Shown: piece by piece, positions 14,674-24,182 of the stretch | How positions within the stretch are numbered: the stretch's first letter is position 1 | Layout of the letters: each line of letters begins with the position of its first letter | Source: Fibrobacter succinogenes subsp. succinogenes S85 | Lineage (GTDB): Bacteria > Fibrobacterota > Fibrobacteria > Fibrobacterales > Fibrobacteraceae | Assembly (NCBI RefSeq): GCF_000146505.1 | Contig: NC_017448.1 | Location: 1,050,001 to 1,082,000 of the forward strand | Length of the DNA stretch: 32,000 nt | Direction of reading: 5' to 3' | Translations under genes and position numbers: made by a program | Notes under the pieces: model-generated | Database searches by the model: none | What the model was told of the DNA's origin: nothing | Seen by the model: the letters and a program-made list of their open reading frames with translations, nothing else

Positions 14674-16227
14674 ATGAGTACTATACTACTATACGCAATG
14701 TTCGTCGTCTACGTTATCGCAGGCGTGGGATTGGTGATTTACGGGTTCAGTTGCTACTATAGCATTTACCTGTTCCTCAAGAACAGCCGCAAGACGCGAC
14801 TTTCAGACCGCAAAGCGATCTTGAAGTACTACCGCGAACATTCGCTCGCAGACCTCCCGCAGGTCACGACCCAGCTCCCGGTTTTTAACGAAGCCAACTG
14901 CGTTGAACGTCTCCTCGAAGCCGTCTGCGCCATCGACTACCCCAAGGACAAGCACGAAATCCAGGTCTTAGACGACTCCACGGACGAGTGCTACGAAGTC
15001 ACCAAGAAGAAAGTTGCTGAACTCGCCGCCCGCGGTTATGACATCAAGCTCATCCACCGCACGAACCGCAAGGACTTCAAGGCTGGCGCCCTCAAGGAAG
15101 GCATGGCTGTTGCAAAGGGTGAATTCCTCGCCATCTTCGACGCCGACTTCGTTCCTGAAAAAGACTTCCTCTTGAAGACCGTCCCATACTTGGTCATGGA
15201 TCCGCAGGTAGGCCTTGTCCAGGGCCGCTGGGGTCACTTGAACCGCACCGAATCCGGTTTGACGCTCGCTCAGTCTATTGGCATTGACGGTCACTTTGTG
15301 ATTGAACAGTCCGCACGTAGCTGGGGCAAGCTCTTTATGAACTTCAACGGTACCGCCGGTGTCTGGCGCAAGGACGCTATTTACGGTGGTGGCGGCTGGG
15401 AAGGCGATACGCTCACCGAAGACATGGACCTTTCTTACCGTTCCCAGCTTGCTGGTTGGAAGATGAAGTTTGTGTTCGACGTGATTGTTCCGGCTGAACT
15501 CCCGAACGACATCAACGCTTTCAAGGCTCAGCAGTTCCGTTGGGCAAAGGGTTCCATCCAGACCGCTATCAAGATTTTGCCGAAGGTTTTGCGTTCCAAG
15601 GTTCCGCTCCGCGTGAAGATTGGCGCCATCCTCCACACGACGCACTACTCGATCCACCCCTGCATGTTGTTCACAGCACTCTGCGCTTGGCCGTTGCTCG
15701 CGTTCTTTGAACCGGTCGGACACCTCCCCACTTGGGCATACACGGTTGGTTTCGCATTCATTTTCCTCGCCGCAATCGCGCCTTCTGTTCTTTACTTTGT
15801 CGCCCAGCGTTGCTCCGGCTACACCGGTTGGAAGATCCGCTTGCTCTCGCTCCCCATCTTGATGGCCCTCGGCGTTGGCATCGCAGTCAGCAACTCCCGC
15901 GCAGTGTTCGCCGCAGTTCTCGGTACAAAGGGCAGCTTCGTCCGTACCCCGAAGAGCGGTGGTGCAAAGAAGAAGGCCAAGAGCCATTACGCACAAAAGT
16001 TCCCGTGGATGGCACTTATCGAACTCCTCGTCGGCGTCTACTGCATTTTCGGTTTGCTCGAATACATCAACGCCAGCAAATACATCATCGGACCGTTCCT
16101 TGCCCTTTATGCAATCGGATTCCTCTCGGTGAGCGTGCTTAGCTTTATGCATTACATCAGCAACATTTTTGAAGTTCGCAAAGCCATTAAGTGCTCTGAA
16201 TGCGTCGAAGAACAGGCTACGAACTAA
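14674..16227 (+). CDS. Processive family-2 glycosyltransferase (cellulose-synthase-like, CslA/glucomannan-synthase type)
   Basis: N-terminal TM, then LDDSTDE, IFDADF, LTEDMDLSYR and QQFRWAKG (the D,D,D,QxxRW hallmarks). Several C-terminal TM helices follow. Confidence 0.9.
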   Translation: MSTILLYAMFVVYVIAGVGLVIYGFSCYYSIYLFLKNSRKTRLSDRKAILKYYREHSLADLPQVTTQLPVFNEANCVERLLEAVCAIDYPKDKHEIQVLDDSTDECYEVTKKKVAELAARGYDIKLIHRTNRKDFKAGALKEGMAVAKGEFLAIFDADFVPEKDFLLKTVPYLVMDPQVGLVQGRWGHLNRTESGLTLAQSIGIDGHFVIEQSARSWGKLFMNFNGTAGVWRKDAIYGGGGWEGDTLTEDMDLSYRSQLAGWKMKFVFDVIVPAELPNDINAFKAQQFRWAKGSIQTAIKILPKVLRSKVPLRVKIGAILHTTHYSIHPCMLFTALCAWPLLAFFEPVGHLPTWAYTVGFAFIFLAAIAPSVLYFVAQRCSGYTGWKIRLLSLPILMALGVGIAVSNSRAVFAAVLGTKGSFVRTPKSGGAKKKAKSHYAQKFPWMALIELLVGVYCIFGLLEYINASKYIIGPFLALYAIGFLSVSVLSFMHYISNIFEVRKAIKCSECVEEQATN

Positions 16228-16275
16228 GTTATAGCTCAGCAAGATGCGGCGAGATTCGCCAAACGCAATTCAAGA

Positions 16276-16302
16276 AGTCCCGCAAACGCGGGGCTTTTTT
16301 TG
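16276..16302 (+). terminator. Intrinsic terminator after the GT2 gene
   Basis: agtcccgc-aaac-gcggggct followed by ttttttt. Confidence 0.75.
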
Positions 16303-16318: not shown

Positions 16319-16597
16319 CTAGAATCGCGCACGAATGGCGCCACGGGATGCACGAGATTCGCCCGAGGTAGTGTCGCAAGGCGGGAGGCCACGCACAAAG
16401 CGGGTGCGGCAGCGGAGTTCTTGAGCTTTCCCGGTCGCAAAGTGGACATAGTTGTCCGAAGTTGCAACAACGCCGTGATGGAACATCGAATAAACGTTCA
16501 ACGAGACGGTCGTGAGGATCGCGGCAACCGTTATGGCGACAAGCATTTCCAAAAGCGTAAAGCCGTGTCGAGATGTTTTAGGCAGAGCTAGATTCAT
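16319..16597 (-). CDS. Prepilin-type N-terminal cleavage/methylation domain protein (pseudopilin-like, 92 aa)
   Basis: MNLALPKTSRHG|FTLLEMLVAITVAAILTTV is a class III signal peptide with Glu at +5. Confidence 0.75.
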   Translation of the reverse strand: MNLALPKTSRHGFTLLEMLVAITVAAILTTVSLNVYSMFHHGVVATSDNYVHFATGKAQELRCRTRFVRGLPPCDTTSGESRASRGAIRARF

Positions 16598-16621
16598 CGC
16601 AAATAAAAAAGCCTCCGATCC

Positions 16622-16927
16622 TCATCGACAACGCACGAGGCGTTTGAGAGAATAATGTTCACTCGCAACAACAGCCCACGCCAAATGTGAACAGCCAGGA
16701 ACACGAATCAGGCGAACCGACAGAGAGTCCGCGCAATCCGGGCGGTTCGCAACCAACGATTCCATCGAAGAGAGCACGTCATAGAATTCCTCCAAGCGCT
16801 TCCGCTCCCCCGCCACTTCGCGATTGAAGAAATTCCAACCGCCAAGGAGCGCCGTTGTTCCAACGAGAAAAACCGTAAGCGCCACGCAAACTTCGGGCAA
16901 AGTAAAGCCTTGACGAGAACAAGTCAC
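16622..16927 (-). CDS. Prepilin-type N-terminal domain protein (pseudopilin-like, ~101 aa)
   Basis: Start reassigned to GTG 16927, giving the leader (M)TCSRQG|FTLPEVCVALTVFLVG. This GTG overlaps the upstream stop as GTGA (16924-16927), a classic coupling arrangement. The track start, TTG 16969, is less likely. Confidence 0.7.
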   Translation of the reverse strand: MTCSRQGFTLPEVCVALTVFLVGTTALLGGWNFFNREVAGERKRLEEFYDVLSSMESLVANRPDCADSLSVRLIRVPGCSHLAWAVVASEHYSLKRLVRCR

Positions 16928-17889
16928 AAGCGCCTCCGGGAAAACACAACATTGCGAGTGTCCATACAAAATGGCAAAAGCGCCTGAGTTGAATCGAGAT
17001 GCTTTGCCGAAGAATCACGTTCAACAGTCCCAGACGGCGCAATCGCCAAGCCTTCAAACACTGACTTTTCAAGGAGCGACAAGCGGTTCTCACGATAGCC
17101 GACCGCAAGAGCCACGCTCGGGAAATTCATTTGTGCACGGTCTGAAATTTCAATATTCTGTTTTGAGAGGAGCGCACCCGCCATTGAGACATTCCCCGAG
17201 ACAGTCACGCTAGCAAGGCCAAAAATTTCAGCAAAGTCAGCGGTCACATTTCCCTGAACGCTCACTGAGCCAGTCGCATAAATCCGAAGCGTATCAAAGT
17301 GAACATTCCCGCGAATCTTGACATCGCCCTCAACATTCGCCATAAAAGAACGAATTGACTTGCGCGAACTTTGCGAATTTTCAAAAGCGCGGGATTCGCC
17401 GAGGTCTAACGTCAAATCGCCAGCGCTCACATTTATCGCCATCATGCGTTCTGCAGAGAGACCATCTGAAGAATCCAGTTTAAAAAAGCGACGATTTCCC
17501 GACAAGTTTTTCAAGCCCACTGAATGCAAAATGCGTTCATGCAAATTCTGCTCCAGCACTACGGCACAACGCGCCCATTCCGAAGTCGAGAATCGCCCGT
17601 ATTCAAGCCCCAGCATGAACTGGAATTTATTACGAACACGCCATTCGGTCCACGGTCCAAGAATCCGAGATTCAACAATCGGAAGCTCCGCAAAATAGCC
17701 ATCCGGAAAGCCATACAGTTTCGCGAGCACCGCAGATTCCGCGAAATACATTTCCTGCGTTTCTTTTGCCACAAGCGATACGTTTCGGCGAAGCGCCCCC
17801 GGCATTTTAAGCATCGCAGTCACGAGAATCGAAAGCACAAGTAACAAGCCCAACACAAGCGGAAGAACGTTACCGCATTTTGAGCGCAT
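16924..17889 (-). CDS. Membrane-anchored protein with PilX-N-like hydrophobic N-terminus and beta-helix-type repeats
   Basis: MRSKCGNVLPLVLGLLLVLSILVTAML anchor. Later come repeats GDVKIRGNVHFDTLRIYATGSVSVQGNVTADFAEIFGLASVTVSGNVSMAG. ATG 17889 overlaps the upstream gene by 20 nt. Confidence 0.6.
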   Translation of the reverse strand: MRSKCGNVLPLVLGLLLVLSILVTAMLKMPGALRRNVSLVAKETQEMYFAESAVLAKLYGFPDGYFAELPIVESRILGPWTEWRVRNKFQFMLGLEYGRFSTSEWARCAVVLEQNLHERILHSVGLKNLSGNRRFFKLDSSDGLSAERMMAINVSAGDLTLDLGESRAFENSQSSRKSIRSFMANVEGDVKIRGNVHFDTLRIYATGSVSVQGNVTADFAEIFGLASVTVSGNVSMAGALLSKQNIEISDRAQMNFPSVALAVGYRENRLSLLEKSVFEGLAIAPSGTVERDSSAKHLDSTQALLPFCMDTRNVVFSRRRL

Positions 17890-19069
17890 AACGAACCTCC
17901 TTGCGACCACAACGCATCACAACATCGTTCATTCCAATTCGCTTCACGCGATATCGAGATAGCGAATCACCGACCGAAAGCGTTTTCGTCTCGCCTGCAG
18001 ATGTTTTCACAAGCGCCACTCGCCCGCCCACAATTCCAAGTAAACTGAATTCCGACGAATCACAGGTTCCTCGTGAAGTTCGCCAACTTCTAGATGCGAC
18101 ACCGTCCACAAAACCCGCCCGTCCGAGAGTCCATTTTGCAGGGAGCAAATCGCGATGCCCTTCCGCCCACGCAAGCATTTCTAAATCGCGAGCGGCAGGC
18201 TGACTTAATTCAACCGGAGCAACATTCACAAATGAATTGTGAAATTCATCATCATAAAATTTTGCACATAACAAATTCAAAGAACCGCCGCTCATTGCAA
18301 AAACACACGCACAAAAAACAAACAAAGCCACGACGCTCATTATCCAACGCCTACGTTCGCAAGGTTTCATCGAATCGCACTCATCTAAATCCTTGCCACG
18401 CCAAAACGGATCACGCACAGCAACTTGAAATAGCTCATCCACCTTCGGCGAGCCCTCGCCAAACTCCCCCACGTCATTCATTTTCGCAAACAGTTCATCG
18501 GCTTTCAAGAATTCCTTAAAACGCGCAACACGCTCCCTACAAGCATCATCAAACACTTCTCCGTAGCCATACTCTTCTGACCAATGGCACAAACGGCCTT
18601 CCATAAAAACGAGGATGTACAGGCAATGTCCCCAAAACGCGACAAACAACAAATTTCCATTTTCCGCAACCTCCGCACATTCGCCGCCACACTCCGCGCA
18701 CGCTTCATCACACTTCAAGCAATTCTCACCATCCCGTTCGCCACGCAATATTTTGTCAGCAATAGCATACAACGCAATTTGTTTTGGCAAGCAACGGTCA
18801 AACGTTTTTCGGTAATTTTCCAACGGTTCATCCGCCACCGCCACGAGATAGCGATGTTTGCGTCCATCCGACGCATTGAACGAGACCAGCTGCCAAAAGA
18901 AAACCGCGCACTCGCCATCTGCAAAACCGGCATTAAATACATCTCTAAAATCTTCGTCAAATCGCTTGCGCAATTCCGTTTCCGTAGGCATCCCGTCAAA
19001 TGCTGTCGTCACTTCCCACGTCATCATCCGAGCCGCAACCGGTGCAATTCGCTTATTCCAGAAAAACAT
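17870..19069 (-). CDS. Hypothetical bitopic membrane protein (399 aa) of the secretin operon
   Basis: Cytoplasmic ~240 aa containing CLKCDEACAECGGEC, a single TM (WIMSVVALFVFCACVFAM), and a periplasmic C-terminus (LLGIVGGRVALVKTSAGETKTLSVGDSLSRYRVKRIGMNDVVM) reminiscent of PilP/GspC HR domains. Confidence 0.6.
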   Translation of the reverse strand: MFFWNKRIAPVAARMMTWEVTTAFDGMPTETELRKRFDEDFRDVFNAGFADGECAVFFWQLVSFNASDGRKHRYLVAVADEPLENYRKTFDRCLPKQIALYAIADKILRGERDGENCLKCDEACAECGGECAEVAENGNLLFVAFWGHCLYILVFMEGRLCHWSEEYGYGEVFDDACRERVARFKEFLKADELFAKMNDVGEFGEGSPKVDELFQVAVRDPFWRGKDLDECDSMKPCERRRWIMSVVALFVFCACVFAMSGGSLNLLCAKFYDDEFHNSFVNVAPVELSQPAARDLEMLAWAEGHRDLLPAKWTLGRAGFVDGVASRSWRTSRGTCDSSEFSLLGIVGGRVALVKTSAGETKTLSVGDSLSRYRVKRIGMNDVVMRCGRKEVRYALKMR

Positions 19070-19114
19070 GTTATTAACCCTTAGTCAATGGTTATTTTTT
19101 CACATCACTAATCC

Positions 19115-20926
19115 TTACAACTTTCCATCAATTTTCCCTCTCGTCTGTAGACTCGCAGAGCCGTTCTCTCGTCTAACATCCACACTCGGCGTGATAAAAA
19201 TTGCGAGTTCACTTTCGTCCTCTTCTTCGGAGGTGTAACTGAATAACCGCCCAAGAATCGGAATACTCCCCAAGAACGGCACCGCCGAACGCACCTCCGT
19301 CTTGTTCTTGCGAATAAGCCCGCCCAAGCACAAAGTTTCACCATCACGCAACACCACAGTTGTCTTCATGTTCCGAGAACTGATGTCTCGCGGCCCATCG
19401 CCAGTGCTCCTGCCCGCCGTCTTGATTTCCGGCGACACAGACAACGTTATCAAACCGTCTTGCGTCATCGTGGGGGTGAGTTCCAATGAAATACCATCGT
19501 TAAACGAACGATAATCCGTAATCGGGTACCCATCCGCAGAAACTTGACTGACAAGATAATAGACCGTATTCGTCACGTTGAGTTCCGCCTTATTGCCGTT
19601 CAACGTTGTCACACGCGGGCGCGCAAGAACCTTCGCCTCATTGTTCTCTTCCATCGACGAAAGCTCTAGTTCAAAGCGGTCCGGCAAGATTCCGATTTTT
19701 CCGAACGCCCCCGATTTCGAAATATCCTTGCCCAAGAAATCAAAGAACCCGCGCGCCTGAATATCGCGCTCACCCACATTCCGCGTTGCCCCGCTCCGCA
19801 CACCAATCGCAAAACTACGCCCCTTGCGGAACTCTACAATCACGCACGCAAGCGTCACTTGCATTTGAGGCACATCGACCATTTTCAAAAGCTCCTCAGC
19901 ACGCGCAATCGCCCGCGGTGAGCCACCAAGCACAAGCGCATTCTGCTCACGATATTCCGAGACATTCAGTTCCGAGCCTTTCATAAACTTTGAAAGTTGC
20001 GCCATAGCTTTCTCGGGCGACACATGCTTTAGCGAAAAGACACGCACATCGGCAAGCGCCTTTGCCCCCTCTTCCGAGACCCAAAGCGACGATGAATCTA
20101 GCCGAAACGTGAACGCACTCCCGCGAAAAAGTGACGCTAAAAGTTCCGGCAACGAAACATCCTTGAACGACATCTGCACTGTTTCATTCAAGTCGCCATA
20201 AACGGCCAAATTGAGCCCAGCCTCTTCTGCAATTGCCTTAAGCACTGCCTTGAGCGAAACCGACTGCAAATCCACCGAATAAAGGTCACCCGCACGTTCC
20301 ACAGAAACTTCCGCGCCATCCGACGAACCGTTCAAAGCATTCCCCGTTTTCGCACGCGAAACCCGCAAGCACCCGCGCTCCCCGCGAACCTTGAACCCGT
20401 TCGATTCCATCAACACGCGAAACGCCATTTCTGGAACCATTCGCCTCAGATTTCCACTCACCACACCATCCACGTCGTAATCCGCAAGCACATTCACGCC
20501 CGTATTCAGGCCAAATTCCTTCACAAACTCGCGCACGTTCATGTTTTTCACGTCAATGACCACGCCAGAATCTGTGAGCGCAATCGTACCGTTCTGCACA
20601 CGCGCCCGCCGAATATGGTACACACGCCCTTCCAACACCAAATCCAAGCCATGCGATGCACAAAGCGAAGTCAGCCCTTCGAAAAGGCTTACCCCCTCCA
20701 GGTGAAACGTCACGCGAACATCGCCCGCATCATCCGTCAAAATGGACGTTCCATACGCAAGCGAAAGCGTCCGCGCCACCTCCGCCAACGAAACATCCAC
20801 AAAATCGAGCGTTACCGCCCCCGGCGAAGTCCGAACAGACTTCGGCTTTTCAACCGAACGCGCTCCCGCCACCGACGAAGACAACAACAATGTCAAAAGG
20901 GAAATTCCCAAGATCCTTAGAAGCAC
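19115..20926 (-). CDS. Secretin (GspD/PilQ family outer-membrane channel)
   Basis: Signal peptide MLLRILGISLLTLLLSSSVAGA. The C-terminal secretin domain reads VLARPRVTTLNGNKAELNV ... LCLGGLIRKNKTEVRSAVPFLGSIPILGRLF ... ELAIFITPSV. GTG start is preceded by AGGAG (tttaggagaatcGTG). Confidence 0.9.
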   Translation of the reverse strand: MLLRILGISLLTLLLSSSVAGARSVEKPKSVRTSPGAVTLDFVDVSLAEVARTLSLAYGTSILTDDAGDVRVTFHLEGVSLFEGLTSLCASHGLDLVLEGRVYHIRRARVQNGTIALTDSGVVIDVKNMNVREFVKEFGLNTGVNVLADYDVDGVVSGNLRRMVPEMAFRVLMESNGFKVRGERGCLRVSRAKTGNALNGSSDGAEVSVERAGDLYSVDLQSVSLKAVLKAIAEEAGLNLAVYGDLNETVQMSFKDVSLPELLASLFRGSAFTFRLDSSSLWVSEEGAKALADVRVFSLKHVSPEKAMAQLSKFMKGSELNVSEYREQNALVLGGSPRAIARAEELLKMVDVPQMQVTLACVIVEFRKGRSFAIGVRSGATRNVGERDIQARGFFDFLGKDISKSGAFGKIGILPDRFELELSSMEENNEAKVLARPRVTTLNGNKAELNVTNTVYYLVSQVSADGYPITDYRSFNDGISLELTPTMTQDGLITLSVSPEIKTAGRSTGDGPRDISSRNMKTTVVLRDGETLCLGGLIRKNKTEVRSAVPFLGSIPILGRLFSYTSEEEDESELAIFITPSVDVRRENGSASLQTRGKIDGKL

Positions 20927-21221
20927 ACGATTCTCCTAAAATGCGCATGCCCGCTTTTTCAATGCGAACGCCTCTGGCGTTACAATTGCGGCCCCTGCCC
21001 GGGATAATATTTAAGGATCTAAGAAATGATATAATAAGTTGCGAACCAATGTATAAAAAAGCAATTAGAAAAACAAGACGTCTAAAGGGGAATAAAATTT
21101 TCGGAACTTTTATCCCCGCTGAGGCGAATTACCTCGTTTTTTTATGGGTTTTAAGACCAGCAAAAAGGACTTTTCGAACAAAAACATCGAAATTTACACA
21201 ATTTCGCCACATTTTCAAAAT

Positions 21222-21237
21222 TGGCACGGTTCTTGCT
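21222..21237 (+). promoter_or_regulatory. Sigma-54 (RpoN) -24/-12 promoter
   Basis: TGGCACGGTTCTTGCT matches the TGGCACG-N4-TTGCW consensus at every defined position. It lies 50 nt upstream of ATG 21287. The only other TGGCAC hexamers I noticed lack a correctly spaced TTGC. Confidence 0.65.
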
Positions 21238-21286
21238 AAATACAGGGTGGAAACAAAAAAATCCACCCACAACCATAGGAAGAATC

Positions 21287-22186
21287 ATGAAATCAAAATT
21301 CATCGCAATCCTCACAATCTCTACGCTTGCCTTTTTTGCCAATGCATCTGCCAAGAGCGATGCCTCTGACATGAAGAGCGTCAAGGCCGAAATCACCGCT
21401 GAAATTTCGGAAGAAGTCCAAGCTGAAGTTGTCGACAAGGTCGACTTCAAGAAGATGCGCGAAGAAAGCAAGGAAGCTCGCAAGGGTCTCCTTGACAAGA
21501 TCAAGCTCGACAAGGACGAAGCCAAGGTAGAAGCTCCGAAGCCGCCGAAGCCGGAAATCGAACCGCCGACCCCGAAGACGGAAGAAGAACTCCAGGCCGA
21601 ACGCGAAGCTCACAAGGCTGAACTCGAAGCCAAGAAGGCCGAACGTGAAGCTAAGAAGGCTGAAGAAGAAGCAAAGCGTGCTGAACGTGAAGAAACTTTG
21701 AAAGCTGAACGCGAAGCTAAGAAGGCAGAAATGGAAGCCAAGCGCGCCGAAGAAGAAGCTAAGCGTGCTGAACGCGAAGAAGCCCGCAAGGCCGAACGCG
21801 AAGCTAAGAAGGCCGAAATGGAAGCTAAGAAGGCTGAGCTCGAAGCACAGCGCGCAGAACGCGAAGAAGCTTTGAAGGCTGAACGCGAAGCTCGCAAGGC
21901 CGAAATGGAAGCCAAGCGTGCTGAACTCGAAGCACAGCGCGCAGAACGCGAAGAAGCTTTGAAAGCCGAACGCGAAGCTAAGAAGGCAGAAATGGAAGCC
22001 AAGCGTGCAGAACTCGAAGCTCAGCGTGCAGAACGCGAAGAAGCTTTGAAGGCCGAACGTGAAGCTCGCAAGGCTGAAATCGAAGCCAAGAAGGCCGAAA
22101 TCGAAGCACAGCGTGCAGAACGTGAAGCTTTGAAGGCTGAAAAGGAAACTGTAAAAGAAGAAAAGACCGTAGCACAGGTTGAATAA
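21287..22186 (+). CDS. Secreted Ala/Glu/Lys/Arg-rich repeat protein (299 aa), predicted long charged helix
   Basis: MKSKFIAILTISTLAFFANASA signal peptide with SD aggaag. The body is KAEMEAKRAELEAQRAEREEALKAEREAR-type 29-aa repeats. The track start, TTG 21221, lies inside the promoter and is rejected. Confidence 0.8.
   Translation: MKSKFIAILTISTLAFFANASAKSDASDMKSVKAEITAEISEEVQAEVVDKVDFKKMREESKEARKGLLDKIKLDKDEAKVEAPKPPKPEIEPPTPKTEEELQAEREAHKAELEAKKAEREAKKAEEEAKRAEREETLKAEREAKKAEMEAKRAEEEAKRAEREEARKAEREAKKAEMEAKKAELEAQRAEREEALKAEREARKAEMEAKRAELEAQRAEREEALKAEREAKKAEMEAKRAELEAQRAEREEALKAEREARKAEIEAKKAEIEAQRAEREALKAEKETVKEEKTVAQVE
21638..22146. repeat. 87-bp (29-codon) in-frame tandem repeat, ~5.8 copies
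   Basis: Copies start at 21638, 21725, 21812, 21899, 21986 and 22073, spaced exactly 87 nt. They differ mainly at synonymous third positions. Confidence 0.9.
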
Positions 22187-22263: not shown

Positions 22264-22710
22264 ATGAAAAACGCAAACAAAATTATTGCACTTTTGACCA
22301 GCTCGGTATTCGTGGCGGTTCCGTTTGCACAACCGGAATCCGATATCGCGACACCTGCAGGAAGGTCAGAAATTTCGCAAGACGCCCCTGACCTTGGACA
22401 GAAACAGAAAGAAGACTGGCAGCGTTTACGCGAAGAACGCAAACAAGCTAGACAGCAGATTCTCTCGGACATCAAGGCAAATGCCCATGCCGAAATCAAG
22501 GATATCCAGCAAGACATCAACTTGCAAAAAACGAGCAACAACGCGCTAAACGAAAACAAGAATATCGCGAAAGAAAATATTATCAACAAAGAAAAAGGGC
22601 AAATTGAAAAGAATCGCGACGAATGGGAAAAACAGCACCCAGAAAACCCGCCGTTCGATGTTCCACGTCCAAACGAACACGTCCCTTTCCCTAAAGGTCC
22701 TAAATTTTAA
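22264..22710 (+). CDS. Hypothetical secreted charged protein (148 aa)
   Basis: Signal peptide MKNANKIIALLTSSVFVAVPFA|QPE. Gln/Lys/Glu/Asn-rich helical body and a Pro-rich C-terminus. It starts 77 nt after the repeat-protein gene with no terminator between them. Confidence 0.7.
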   Translation: MKNANKIIALLTSSVFVAVPFAQPESDIATPAGRSEISQDAPDLGQKQKEDWQRLREERKQARQQILSDIKANAHAEIKDIQQDINLQKTSNNALNENKNIAKENIINKEKGQIEKNRDEWEKQHPENPPFDVPRPNEHVPFPKGPKF

Positions 22711-22790: not shown

Positions 22791-24182
22791 TCACCACGTT
22801 GGCGGCGGAGCGTAGATGAATTGACCCGCGCTGCAAAAGAACACGCAGCCATCGATATCGCTAGACTCGCCTTCGTTTTCGCAAGCGGTTCCGATTACAG
22901 GGCTTGCCTGGCAACGCAGAGACGGGCGGTCGCAATCGACTTCTTCGCCACATTCGTAATACTTGAAGCGTTCCACCCACTTGTTATTGACGCAGATGTA
23001 GTTTTCAATTCTGAAACTATTATTGGATTCCACGATGCGGAGGTCTCTGCTAGATTCAGAACCGTCGCAAGGTTCGCTCAGCCATTTATCGTTGCAGTAT
23101 CTATCAATGCCATACTTGTTGCAAAGTTCGTATTCGCTATAACCGCATTCCGGAGCAAGGGCGTTGCATACAGGAACCGCGCATCCATCCATTCCTGGTT
23201 CGCAATCCTTGACATTCAGAGACCAGTATCCCTGATCACACACAAATTCCTCACCTGTTTCGCAATCAAATGCAAATCTTTTTTCTACACCACAAAAACC
23301 GCAACCAGGCCTATTATCATCGCATTTAACATCGGTGATGTGCTCGCAGATTTCATCGCCCATGCCGTACTCTCTCCACTTGCCGCCTTCGCACTTGTAA
23401 TGGCCATTGAAGACGCCTTCTTTAAAGCAAGCTTCGCAGTATTCAAGTTTGCCTTGGGCGCAGAGTTTATTGTTATCCGTCGCCTTGACTTCCCACGTTT
23501 CACCGTTGCAAACGTAAATGGCACCACTTCCGCAATCGGCAATTTCCTTGATGCCATCCGGTTGGCAGAGACGGTAGCCACAGCCACCCATCCCCGGCTT
23601 GCATTCATCCGGTTTGACATTCAAGCAAGTCACCGGCTGCCAATTGTTGTTTTGGCATTCATAGTTCGCACCTGTCACGCAGTCAACGGCGGTGCGACCG
23701 TTTTGATCCACGCAGTTACCCTTTTCGGTCATGCCATCGTAATCCGTGATGTGTCTGCAAGTTTCCACGGTTTTCTCTTCGCAGCAAACCGGCTCCTGAG
23801 TCCAAATTCCGTTACAGTGAGTCGTCCAATGACCATTCGGACACGATTCAACGGAACTCGAGCTCAATGGCTTTTGAGAAAACGAAGAACTGCTCACGCA
23901 GAAGTAGGTCTGGCCCATTTCACAAAGTTGTTCGACGGTGTAACCACACTCAGGAAGCAGTGCAGCACACTGCGAGCTGAGCGGGATATCGGATGAAGAG
24001 CTTACAGCAACCTCTGAGCTAGAGGACTGCGGAGCAGGCTGTTCAACGGCCGAGGAAGTCCCACCGTTTCCAGCGTTGAAATCAGGACCGCTGAGAGTAT
24101 CGTTATCGCATGCAACGACTGCGAAAGAAGTAGCCGCCACAACGGCAAGGCTCATCGCCTTGACATAATGATTCTTTTTCAT
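22791..24182 (-). CDS. Cysteine-rich repeat lipoprotein (463 aa)
   Basis: Lipobox SFAVVAC|DND, a Ser-rich linker, then about 42 Cys by hand count. Recurring modules are L.PECGY..E.LC...G...[FY]C, C.PGM.GC and DC.[ST]G..[YF].C....W. SD aaggag lies upstream. Confidence 0.8.
   Translation of the reverse strand: MKKNHYVKAMSLAVVAATSFAVVACDNDTLSGPDFNAGNGGTSSAVEQPAPQSSSSEVAVSSSSDIPLSSQCAALLPECGYTVEQLCEMGQTYFCVSSSSFSQKPLSSSSVESCPNGHWTTHCNGIWTQEPVCCEEKTVETCRHITDYDGMTEKGNCVDQNGRTAVDCVTGANYECQNNNWQPVTCLNVKPDECKPGMGGCGYRLCQPDGIKEIADCGSGAIYVCNGETWEVKATDNNKLCAQGKLEYCEACFKEGVFNGHYKCEGGKWREYGMGDEICEHITDVKCDDNRPGCGFCGVEKRFAFDCETGEEFVCDQGYWSLNVKDCEPGMDGCAVPVCNALAPECGYSEYELCNKYGIDRYCNDKWLSEPCDGSESSRDLRIVESNNSFRIENYICVNNKWVERFKYYECGEEVDCDRPSLRCQASPVIGTACENEGESSDIDGCVFFCSAGQFIYAPPPTW

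Follow-up and report, generated by a model that had tools for sequence, protein, structure and literature searches.

A genus-restricted secretin and pseudopilin operon of Fibrobacter succinogenes, probably an accessory type IV filament-like module with its motor encoded elsewhere

What is the role of an operon that encodes a secretin and several pilin-like proteins, with no motor beside them? The question is raised by five minus-strand ORFs of Fibrobacter succinogenes S85, Fisuc_0539 to Fisuc_0535, in a stretch of 32,000 nucleotides that we analysed as a whole (the window). Genes called independently on the source genome are the same five, and the tight packing described in a sequence-only reading of this DNA is confirmed. 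A 20-nt overlap at 17870-17889, between the 399-aa and 321-aa genes, is directly legible in the sequence, and a GTGA at 16924-16927 combines the GTG start of the 101-aa gene with the stop of the 321-aa gene. The latter has a GGAGG 7 nt 5' of its ATG, from which it encodes 321 aa (328 aa if an upstream GTG is used). The locus is laid out as follows.

14674-16227, convergent flank: gene for a membrane-bound family-2 glycosyltransferase (GT2)
16272..16299, no strand assigned: GC-rich hairpin where the operon and the GT2 gene converge (consensus scan only)
16319..16597, minus strand: very small prepilin, 92 aa, Fisuc_0535 (Pfam N_methyl, TIGR02532)
16622..16927, minus strand: small prepilin, 101 aa, GTG start, Fisuc_0536 (TIGR02532)
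16924..17889, minus strand: 321-aa pseudopilin-like protein without Glu5, Fisuc_0537 (AF2 model and N-terminal motif)
17870..19069, minus strand: bitopic 399-aa connector protein, Fisuc_0538 = FSU_0963 (AF2 fold and topology)
19115..20926, minus strand: secretin, 603 aa, Fisuc_0539 (Pfam/NCBIfam)
20927..21286, no strand assigned: intergenic region that separates the secretin gene from the divergent Fisuc_0540 (sigma-70-like consensus matches)
21287-22186, divergent flank: repeat-protein gene Fisuc_0540

The hairpin is a terminator-like site with a 12-bp stem and is likely the terminator of both the operon and the GT2 gene. At the other end, where the upstream gene is indeed divergent, the intergenic region has two minus-strand matches to a sigma-70-like consensus (21218-21191 and 21055-21026) and presumably contains the promoter and regulatory sequences of the operon. 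The operon is also complete without a motor, as had been proposed: the called or long ORFs checked in the window gave no match to the T2SSE, T2SSF, peptidase A24, PilM/N/O or GspL/M families, and in none of 63 species genomes does an ATPase, platform protein or prepilin peptidase gene adjoin the block.

In these 63 Fibrobacter(aceae) species genomes, the five genes keep the same order and syntenic position, and all have dN/dS below 0.5 (range 0.06-0.49; secretin 0.06-0.17, 399-aa protein 0.15-0.42, 321-aa protein 0.10-0.49). Because it has been kept in this way, the block is not a chance arrangement. Judged by these ratios, the operon is under purifying selection, and the block is restricted to the rumen genus Fibrobacter and found throughout it. 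The operon is almost silent in culture. Its RPKM is 0-15, with cellulose little different from glucose (PMC4668043), and in a second dataset its mean log2 expression is 1.5-5.7, compared to 11.3 for the other S85 secretin (PMC6204037). In the same dataset, the divergent Fisuc_0540 (13.52) lies roughly 8 log2 units above the secretin gene (5.71) and up to 12 above the promoter-distal prepilin gene (1.45). This could be what is left of an ancestral T2SS after the loss of its E/F/G/O genes, by now either without function or in decay. Expression is near zero in every published condition, a search of the supplement text of one proteome study of the cell envelope found none of the operon proteins, selection is relaxed compared to the flanks, and the middle genes evolve fast, with about 30% identity where their neighbours keep about 90%. 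However, the five ORFs remain intact, ordered and translationally coupled in about 60 species between which identity falls to 30%, their dN/dS values are far from 1, and motifs are strictly conserved (GRLCHWSE, Cys336/Cys387, the prepilin G/FxLxE and YxAES). Furthermore, the secretin gene is up by log2 2.4 at pH 5.65 (PMC5442110). We consider decay quite unlikely.

The conserved neighbourhood could point to another role, exopolysaccharide export coupled to the adjacent GT2, by analogy with cyanobacteria and myxobacteria, whose slime secretion depends on a secretin and pseudopilins. In nearly every genome the GT2 gene, about 90% conserved, converges on the operon, the prepilin N-termini weakly match HpsB/HpsC, and both secretin-dependent slime secretion and Hps pseudopilins are known from other phyla (PMC12475490). 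However, the GT2 gene forms a transcription unit of its own in convergent orientation, and its expression (log2 9.73 versus 1.5-5.7) is roughly 16-fold (secretin) to more than 250-fold (prepilins) higher. The evolutionary rates are wholly different (90% identity versus 30%), and genes further downstream, TusA and SulP among them, are equally syntenic, such that the two may be neighbours because gene order is conserved here in general. We therefore regard such coupling as very unlikely.

Gene 1 is a secretin, as the sequence-only reading had it (Pfam Secretin 4.9e-43, Secretin_N 4.9e-12), and its N0 match just passes threshold (27.3 bits versus a cut-off of 27). It is 56-94% identical over the 63 genomes. 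Its domains are as follows.

aa 1-22: signal peptide
aa ~40-280: N0-like and STN-like N-terminal domains
aa 294-356: Secretin_N
aa 425-582: pore domain

For the proposed GspD/PilQ type, the protein falls below both curated cut-offs (PilQ 186 versus 284, GspD 153 versus 351); that of HofQ is likewise missed, and no AMIN domains were detected. Among solved structures, those of PilQ and GspD secretins and of phage f1 pIV come nearest (E about 1e-24 to 1e-26). The last of these raises the possibility of a secretin module domesticated from a filamentous phage, and the secretin does match the PHROG family of M13 protein IV (7e-59) and f1 pIV itself (7ofh, 2e-24). This similarity is a generic secretin signal, not above that to PilQ or GspD. 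Named phage families gave no match to the remaining four proteins; beyond the secretin, there is just a weak match (E 0.0015) of the 92-aa prepilin to a PHROG family of unknown function. A Zot-like ATPase, integrase and repeat boundaries are absent, the GC content of the block is that of its flanks, its position is fixed throughout the genus, and no plasmid homologue of the 399-aa protein was found. A phage origin is highly improbable.

The two middle proteins had been described as carrying nothing that could be mapped to canonical parts. At the level of sequence families this stands: profiles, including those built from the families themselves, and hhalign gave no confident homology of either protein to PilM, GspL, PilP, GspC, GspK or PilX. 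It does not stand at the level of fold. The 399-aa protein has no sequence match in Pfam, NCBIfam or PDB, and its family has only 99 members in 1.84 billion representative proteins. We divide it as follows.

aa 1-239, nt 18353-19069: cytoplasmic domain
aa 240-269, nt 18263-18352: membrane helix
aa 270-334: periplasmic linker, poorly conserved
aa 335-399, nt 17873-18067: C-terminal beta domain

The single strong membrane helix has six K/R before it and one after, and we therefore assign an N-in/C-out topology. The cytoplasmic domain carries a hypervariable Cys-rich insert at aa 111-135, and Cys336 and Cys387 are invariant in the predicted periplasmic domain. The overall confidence of the AF2 model is low (mean pLDDT 57), with 82-86 for the C-terminal domain and 60-79 for the N-terminal domain. 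In Foldseek searches against PDB, the C-terminal domain matched the GspC HR domain 3oss_C (TM 0.80, rmsd 1.9 Å, prob 1.00), PilP 3jc8_Pa (prob 1.00) and LspC 7oio. The best matches of the cytoplasmic domain were PilM structures of three species (prob 0.33-0.85): 5eoy, 5eox, 5eq6, 5eou and 3jc8_Ma at 0.60-0.85 and 2ych at 0.33, with low global TM (0.15-0.19). All top-ranked matches of the protein are parts of T2SS/T4P alignment complexes, and none reached E <= 0.001. A weak link at the sequence level exists for the C-terminal domain: the tail of an exhaustive profile search contained proteins of TM-linker-HR type with weak T2SSB/T2SSC signals. The modelled fold suggests that the 399-aa protein links the inner membrane to the secretin channel.

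The 321-aa protein (AF2 pLDDT 70.5, pTM 0.72) has a GspK/PilX-type pseudopilin-like N-terminus without Glu5, followed by a beta-solenoid.

aa 1-58: Gly6, hydrophobic helix and the conserved Y48-x-A-E-S52 motif
aa 102-121: helix
aa 126-291: beta-solenoid

The N-terminal motif is kept in 63 orthologues, and hhalign aligned the first 61 aa to the E. coli GspK N-terminus with 28% identity, at a probability of only 4%. In Pfam the protein gave only sub-threshold beta-solenoid matches (FapA, DUF7305, DUF2807, bactofilin), and Foldseek against PDB returned only generic beta-helices. Among the weak matches are the Caldicellulosiruptor tapirins 4wa0, 6n2b and 6n2c, beta-helix cellulose adhesins whose genes lie next to the type IV pilus locus, such that there, too, a beta-helical protein goes with a pilus-type locus in a cellulolytic bacterium. 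However, none of these matches is significant (E >= 0.56, prob <= 0.41), tapirins lack the pilin-type N-terminus of the 321-aa protein, and the operon is essentially unexpressed on cellulose (RPKM 0-15).

Both small proteins have the prepilin leaders that had been recognised by eye, and both pass TIGR02532. The 101-aa protein (MTCSRQG/FTLPE, mature length about 94 aa) scores 21.5 bits against a cut-off of 16.3 there and 19.6 against 21.2 for Pfam N_methyl; it has a conserved Cys pair, PxC ... VRC, with VRC at the C-terminus. The 92-aa protein (MNLALPKTSRHG/FTLLE, mature length about 80 aa, chiefly alpha-1 helix) scores 30.7 bits with TIGR02532 and 32.7 with N_methyl. Counted over 64 loci (the 63 species genomes and the S85 locus, L001), a first prepilin ORF of GF[TS]LxE type is present in 62 and a second in 53, with a mature length of 60-89 aa.

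Such short pseudopilins could form a Com-like pseudopilus in a dedicated DNA-uptake (competence) module, induced under specific conditions, with the secretin as a HofQ/PilQ-type DNA porin; this would be a functional special case of the accessory module that we favour. The N-terminus of the 92-aa prepilin weakly resembles those of GspJ, GspH, GspI, ComGE and ComGF, and ComGC and ComGD also appear among the weak likenesses of the small prepilins. The secretin matches HofQ DNA-uptake porin models at E 1e-35, far under their cut-offs. The near-silent expression resembles that of the cryptic E. coli hof genes, and S85 has a ComEC/Rec2 (Fisuc_2281) that is also very low (RPKM 11/10). However, the ComG and HofQ matches are all sub-threshold and reflect generic secretin and N-terminal pilin similarity; comEA, comEC and dprA were not found near the block; we came across no account of natural transformation in Fibrobacter; and DNA could just as well be taken up by the well-expressed type IV pilus system. 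We think a competence function unlikely.

We consider it reasonably probable that the block belongs to the type IV filament superfamily as a genus-restricted accessory module, T2SS / type IV pilus-like, with its motor encoded elsewhere in the genome. In agreement with the earlier suggestion of a borrowed motor, published tables place GspE (Fisuc_0291), PilC (Fisuc_1050), a prepilin peptidase (Fisuc_2027) and PilT paralogues away from the operon; the numbers of GspE/PilB and PilC paralogues, taken from differential-expression tables and a supplement, are at least those given (PMC4668043 S1 table; PMC6204037 supplement). The same sources list a separate, well-expressed secretin-PilN-PilM (pilMN/pilQ) cluster, Fisuc_0248-0252, and the known pilins FSU_1212 and FSU_2567 also lie outside the operon (PMC6851124). 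Because that canonical cluster is separate and well expressed, the block does not represent half of a split standard T2SS/T4P.

Like a T2SS, the operon has an N0-bearing secretin, tight gene coupling, small Glu5-bearing pseudopilins and a large pseudopilin that lacks Glu5 and is about as long as GspK (321 aa versus 327 aa in E. coli). In the models, its bitopic inner-membrane protein would have a GspC HR fold in the periplasm and, as in GspL, an actin-like cytoplasmic domain fused to the membrane helix, such that GspC-like and GspL-like functions appear fused in one protein. In contrast to a T2SS, the locus lacks GspE, F, G, H, M and O, the fused protein has no PDZ, coiled-coil or ferredoxin-like periplasmic domain, the large pseudopilin bears a beta-solenoid rather than the GspK alpha-domain, and sequence-level family membership is missing, including the GspD equivalog cut-off. 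The type IVa pilus PilM-PilN-PilO-PilP-PilQ system offers a similar comparison: the best folds of the 399-aa protein are PilM (cytoplasmic) and PilP (periplasmic), its partner gene encodes a PilQ-like secretin, and the operon is proposed to rely likewise on PilB, PilC and PilD-type components. However, one polypeptide stands in place of four, with no PilN/PilO ferredoxin-like domains detected, and the secretin lacks detected AMIN domains and the PilQ score. Orphan or accessory secretins or minor-pilin sets that use a common motor are known from P. aeruginosa (XqhA) and E. coli (hofMNOPQ with ppdD-hofBC), where the secretin locus also lies apart from the ATPase, platform and peptidase genes and is cryptic or poorly expressed in the laboratory. 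Those loci encode recognisable PilM/N/O/P, or a secretin alone, whereas the accompanying proteins here are sequence orphans of one genus.

By homology, the secretin forms the outer-membrane channel. The N0 domain is the known site where HR/PilP domains dock, and the GspC-HR/PilP-like C-terminal domain of the 399-aa protein, held in the inner membrane, could dock there, while its PilM/GspL-like cytoplasmic domain may touch the assembly ATPase or platform. One polypeptide might thus do the job of a PilM-N-O-P or GspC-L-M alignment complex. A prepilin peptidase encoded elsewhere would process the three pilin-like proteins into a short pseudopilus, with the two Glu5-bearing mini-pilins as its stem and the Glu5-less 321-aa beta-solenoid protein as a GspK/PilX-like cap; energy, platform and peptidase would come from GspE Fisuc_0291, PilC Fisuc_1050 and PilD Fisuc_2027. 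The idea of a novel envelope machine does not hold up: because the middle proteins match known parts by fold or N-terminus, the components are recombined, highly diverged known modules. The operon, hardly expressed, is thus probably a compact variant that supplements the ordinary type IV pilus apparatus of the cell, no new kind of machine, and it probably has a conditional role, for example in secretion, adhesion or DNA uptake.

An ORF listing and independent gene calls were concordant on a set of five minus-strand genes at 16319-20926, in a window whose counterpart in the S85 record CP001792.1 lies at about 611-632 kb.

Genes of the operon, in order of transcription
19115-20926, minus strand: secretin, 603 aa, Fisuc_0539
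17870-19069, minus strand: connector, 399 aa, Fisuc_0538 (FSU_0963)
16924-17889, minus strand: large pseudopilin-like protein, 321 aa, Fisuc_0537
16622-16927, minus strand: small prepilin, 101 aa, Fisuc_0536
16319-16597, minus strand: very small prepilin, 92 aa, Fisuc_0535

Read directly from the DNA, the genes overlap by 20 nt at 17870-17889, with a GGAGG preceding the ATG, and by a GTGA at 16924-16927. One border of the operon is a convergent family-2 glycosyltransferase (GT2) gene, with a hairpin at 16272-16299 common to both, and the other is a divergent gene at 21287-22186. Promoter and terminator scans gave consensus matches only, and promoters of the sigma-70 type may not be those of Fibrobacter. 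In the 32-kb window, the ORFs that were checked include no GspE/PilB ATPase, GspF/PilC platform, prepilin peptidase or major (pseudo)pilin, and no member of the PilMNO or GspLM families. The sequence-only reading, which had described five genes without a motor, was correct in its coordinates, in both overlaps and in the lack of a motor.

Fisuc_0539 falls within the secretin superfamily (PF00263, 147.1 bits against a Pfam cut-off of 27.5, E 4.9e-43), with a Secretin_N domain at 46.3 bits (cut-off 28.2) and an N0 domain at 27.3 bits, barely over the cut-off of 27. It did not score as GspD by the TIGR02517 equivalog (153.2 bits against a curated cut-off of 351) or as PilQ by TIGR02515 (186.3 against 284), although the latter, sub-cut-off as it is, was its top secretin subfamily match. 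Judged by these profiles, Fisuc_0539 is a secretin outside every curated subfamily, and its distance from the PilQ, GspD and phage pIV secretins of known structure is about the same. One rival explanation is a phage-derived secretin; we rejected a phage or plasmid origin, as PHROGs and PLSDB yielded only generic similarity to the pIV secretin.

The two smallest proteins carry a prepilin-type N-terminal domain, in which a short basic leader precedes a hydrophobic alpha-1 helix and Gly stands at -1, Phe at +1 and Glu at +5; the G/FTLLE and G/FTLPE motifs are visible in the sequence itself. The 92-aa Fisuc_0535, with the predicted leader MNLALPKTSRHG/FTLLE, scored 30.7 bits with TIGR02532 and 32.7 bits with PF07963, and the 101-aa Fisuc_0536, with the predicted leader MTCSRQG/FTLPE, scored 21.5 bits with TIGR02532 (cut-off 16.3) and 19.6 with Pfam against 21.2. 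Both are unusually short, with mature lengths across orthologues of ~70-137 aa in the Fisuc_0536 family, which conserves a Cys pair, and 60-89 aa in the Fisuc_0535 family, which has scarcely anything beyond the alpha-1 helix.

In the 321-aa Fisuc_0537 we find a different type of pilin-like N-terminus. Its orthologues begin with basic residues, a Gly and a hydrophobic helix without Glu5, followed by Q-x-x-Y-x-A-E-S, and this pilin-like helix lacking Glu5, our functional mark for the class, is the pattern of GspK/PilX-type minor pseudopilins. The first 61 residues are 28% identical to the N-terminus of E. coli GspK, in a comparison with this single sequence to which hhalign gave a probability of only 4%, so that a resemblance to GspK itself is tentative. 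None of 41 orthologues matched GspK (PF03934/PF21687) or PilX_N (PF14341) at E <= 0.1, and by sequence the protein lies outside both families. Pfam returned only sub-threshold beta-solenoid families (FapA, DUF7305 at 22.8 bits against 27, DUF2807 and bactofilin). The Foldseek matches were all beta-helices of a generic kind, among them ice-binding proteins and, as weak matches, the tapirins of Caldicellulosiruptor. In the model itself (pLDDT 70.5, pTM 0.72), a long helix at the N-terminus, another helix and, at residues 126-291, a beta-solenoid can be seen; the model was built from a shallow alignment, a third, broad homologue search having again given mostly the close clade. By functional analogy, we infer that Fisuc_0537 may be a pseudopilin that lacks Glu5, bears a large head domain and serves as a cap.

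The 399-aa Fisuc_0538 gave nothing usable with Pfam and NCBIfam for the window protein, with Pfam for 48 orthologues, in a profile hmmsearch against all PDB sequences, or in hhalign against E. coli GspL, GspC and HofM. There was no sequence match to PilM (PF11104) or the GspL cytoplasmic domain (PF05134), and for the GspC homology region (HR, PF11356) or PilP (PF04351) the sole signals were T2SSC in a single orthologue (E 0.089) and GspC_delta (E 0.29). An index of 5.8 billion proteins returned 239 matches, every named one from Fibrobacter, and when 1.84 billion representative proteins were scanned exhaustively with a profile, the family numbered only 99, the tail of the scan containing a few PilP/GspB-like proteins of TM-linker-HR layout with faint T2SSB/T2SSC signals. 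The protein has a single strong membrane helix at residues 240-269, with six K/R before it and one after, which predicts ~240 cytoplasmic and ~130 periplasmic residues; the domain predicted to be periplasmic contains the invariant Cys336 and Cys387. Residues 111-135 (window 18665-18739) form a Cys- and acidic-rich insert, NCLKCDEACAECGGECAEV, whose length and sequence differ greatly from species to species (column identity 0.09) and which the model shows as disordered. It does not follow a conserved zinc-finger pattern.

For the fold of the connector, we took as GspC HR or PilP a small periplasmic beta-sandwich docking on the secretin N0 domain, and as PilM or GspL a cytoplasmic actin-like ATPase fold, PilN-binding or fused to a membrane helix, that contacts the assembly ATPase. 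Taken as a whole, the AlphaFold model is of middling quality (pLDDT 57), with pLDDT 82-86 in the C-terminal beta domain and 60-79 in the N-terminal domain. Foldseek against the PDB matched PilP of the Myxococcus type IV pilus machine (3jc8_Pa, prob 1.00), the HR of ETEC GspC from the GspC-GspD complex (3oss_C, TM 0.80, rmsd 1.9 A over 64 columns, prob 1.00) and Legionella LspC (7oio, prob 0.82). It also matched PilM structures, Pseudomonas PilM among them (5eoy, 5eox, 5eq6, 5eou and 3jc8_Ma, E 6e-3 to 0.09, prob 0.60-0.85), with Myxococcus PilM at prob 0.63 and Thermus PilM (2ych) at E 0.28 and prob 0.33. No PDB match reached E <= 0.001, and the PilM superpositions, on a domain of pLDDT 60-79, are globally poor (TM 0.15-0.19); for this reason a GspC HR/PilP-like fold is well supported for the modelled C-terminal domain, whereas the N-terminal domain is only probably PilM/GspL-like. 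The C-terminal assignment is further supported by the two invariant cysteines and by the TM-linker-HR proteins in the tail of the profile search. As modelled, the chain reads as a GspL/PilM cytoplasmic half, a membrane helix and a GspC/PilP secretin-binding domain, and for this protein the earlier view that the middle proteins are without canonical counterparts is not borne out at fold level. The case illustrates how "hypothetical" proteins confined to one genus, which escape profile searches, can be identified by comparing folds.

Conservation of the neighbourhood, a check named in the sequence-only reading, bore out the operon as a unit. When a single genome from each species was scanned, the 399-aa family was present in 63 Fibrobacter/Fibrobacteraceae genomes and nowhere else, and essentially all 63 keep the order secretin, 399-aa family, 321-aa family and two GF[TS]LxE prepilins, followed by the convergent GT2 gene, a TusA-like gene, two small genes and SulP. 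No GspE/PilB ATPase, GspF/PilC platform, major (pseudo)pilin or prepilin peptidase lies within 8-10 kb of the block in the 63 genomes, and the locus does not qualify as a complete T2SS or T4aP locus, in which these would accompany the secretin. The upstream flank is variable; a motor hidden upstream of the secretin in distant species was considered and rejected, the genes there being ABC-2 permeases, a pectate lyase, CotH and a helicase. One rival explanation would couple the operon to the GT2 for polysaccharide export. The middle genes fall to ~30% identity versus the ~90% kept by GT2 and SulP. The GT2 (Fisuc_0534, 14674-16227, plus strand) is a multi-pass protein that is 86-100% identical genus-wide, far above anything nearby, and is always convergent on the operon with the hairpin at 16272-16299 in common.

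Another rival explanation would make the operon a decaying remnant. Pairwise dN/dS was 0.06-0.17 for the secretin, 0.15-0.42 for the 399-aa family, 0.10-0.49 for the 321-aa family and 0.14-0.37 for the small prepilins, and the five genes are real, fast-evolving and under purifying selection, with no pseudogenes. Within a given genome pair, their dS was mostly ~2-3 times that of the flanking genes (0.50-1.07 versus 0.22-0.36 between the S85 locus and a related one); recombination, or weak constraint on the codons of silent genes, might account for this.

Among the genes listed in the published S85 expression tables (PMC4668043; PMC6204037), the operon is almost silent: RPKM on cellulose/glucose are 15/11 for Fisuc_0535, 10/8 for 0536, 4/2 for 0537 and 0/0 for 0538, and mean log2 values are 1.45 for 0535, 1.86 for 0536, 3.43 for 0538 and 5.71 for 0539. 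The only condition reported to alter Fisuc_0539 expression is acid pH, where it rose by log2 2.4 (adjusted P 3e-4) at pH 5.65 versus 6.70 in acid-adapted S85 (PMC5442110). Literature searches by locus tag led only to expression tables and this one acid-stress list, with no paper describing the operon, and the pilus-gene list of the genome paper does not include it (PMC3079729).

The same tables list further genes of this kind, motor genes among them, elsewhere in S85 (PMC4668043; PMC6204037): another secretin that has PilN and PilM beside it (Fisuc_0248, 0251 and 0252; RPKM ~500, mean log2 11.3), GspE Fisuc_0291 (mean log2 6.3), PilC and PilT (Fisuc_1050 and 1051, about log2 9.3), further PilT paralogues (Fisuc_0956, 1016 and 1017) and the prepilin peptidase Fisuc_2027. 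Since the GspE and PilC genes come from differential-expression tables, the genome has at least those listed and paralogue totals are a minimum. The known pilins FSU_1212 and FSU_2567 are likewise encoded elsewhere (PMC6851124). The idea that the operon borrows a motor is reasonable; it would use one encoded elsewhere, whether shared or dedicated. Fisuc_0291, the only GspE-type ATPase among the genes listed, has a log2 of 6.3 that is close to the 5.7 of the orphan secretin and unlike that of PilQ (11.3) or PilC (9.4), and ComEC/Rec2 Fisuc_2281 is likewise very low (RPKM 11/10); their low expression may hint at the operon's partners. That ComEC is encoded, and also expressed very low, speaks for a further rival explanation, in which the operon would serve DNA uptake.

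The other side of the locus is expressed very differently from this. Divergent Fisuc_0540 (21287-22186, plus strand) and Fisuc_0541 (22264-22710, plus strand) are among the strongest cellulose-induced genes of S85 (RPKM 5173 vs 35 and 1959 vs 14; mean log2 13.5). Fisuc_0540 has a signal peptide and is made up of six tandem repeats of 87 nt (29 aa), rich in Glu, Lys and Ala, at 21614-22141; it belongs to no Pfam family, and only the closer Fibrobacter species have a recognisable counterpart. A 463-aa protein at 22791-24182 (minus strand), with a lipoprotein-type signal (…AVVAC/DNDT) and many regularly spaced Cys, is also without a Pfam family and conserved only in closer species, at 58-82% identity.

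The best-supported reading of the operon is an accessory type IV filament/T2SS-like module. It would bring its own outer-membrane channel, one-piece connector and three-protein pseudopilus set, with the ATPase, platform and peptidase supplied by genes elsewhere in the genome. The C-terminal domain of the connector would dock on the secretin N0 domain, its cytoplasmic domain would contact the motor, and Fisuc_0537 would act as the cap. What sets this module apart is the apparent fusion, on the evidence of the model, of GspL/PilM-like and GspC/PilP-like functions in a single genus-restricted chain. We hold it possible, if somewhat unlikely, that the operon encodes a minimal trans-envelope pseudopilus machine, in which one PilM-like/membrane helix/PilP-like fusion replaces the four-protein alignment complex, a beta-solenoid-headed Glu5-less pseudopilin is a specialised tip, and a motor encoded elsewhere, possibly common with the housekeeping type IV pilus, is used, the whole being on only conditionally, for example under acid stress or in rumen community life.

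If true, no known coupling of a secretin to its motor would be more compact, and the operon would offer a tractable model for the recombination of type IV filament modules. If the 399-aa protein alone bridges motor and secretin, the PilMNOP or GspCLM alignment complex would be compressible into one chain, which would aid the understanding and engineering of minimal type IV filament machines. To our knowledge, the literature on Fibrobacter adhesion and secretion has so far dealt only with type IV pilins, the T9SS and vesicles. Fibrobacter, whose mechanisms of adhesion and secretion are still debated, would gain a second, conditionally expressed secretin system.
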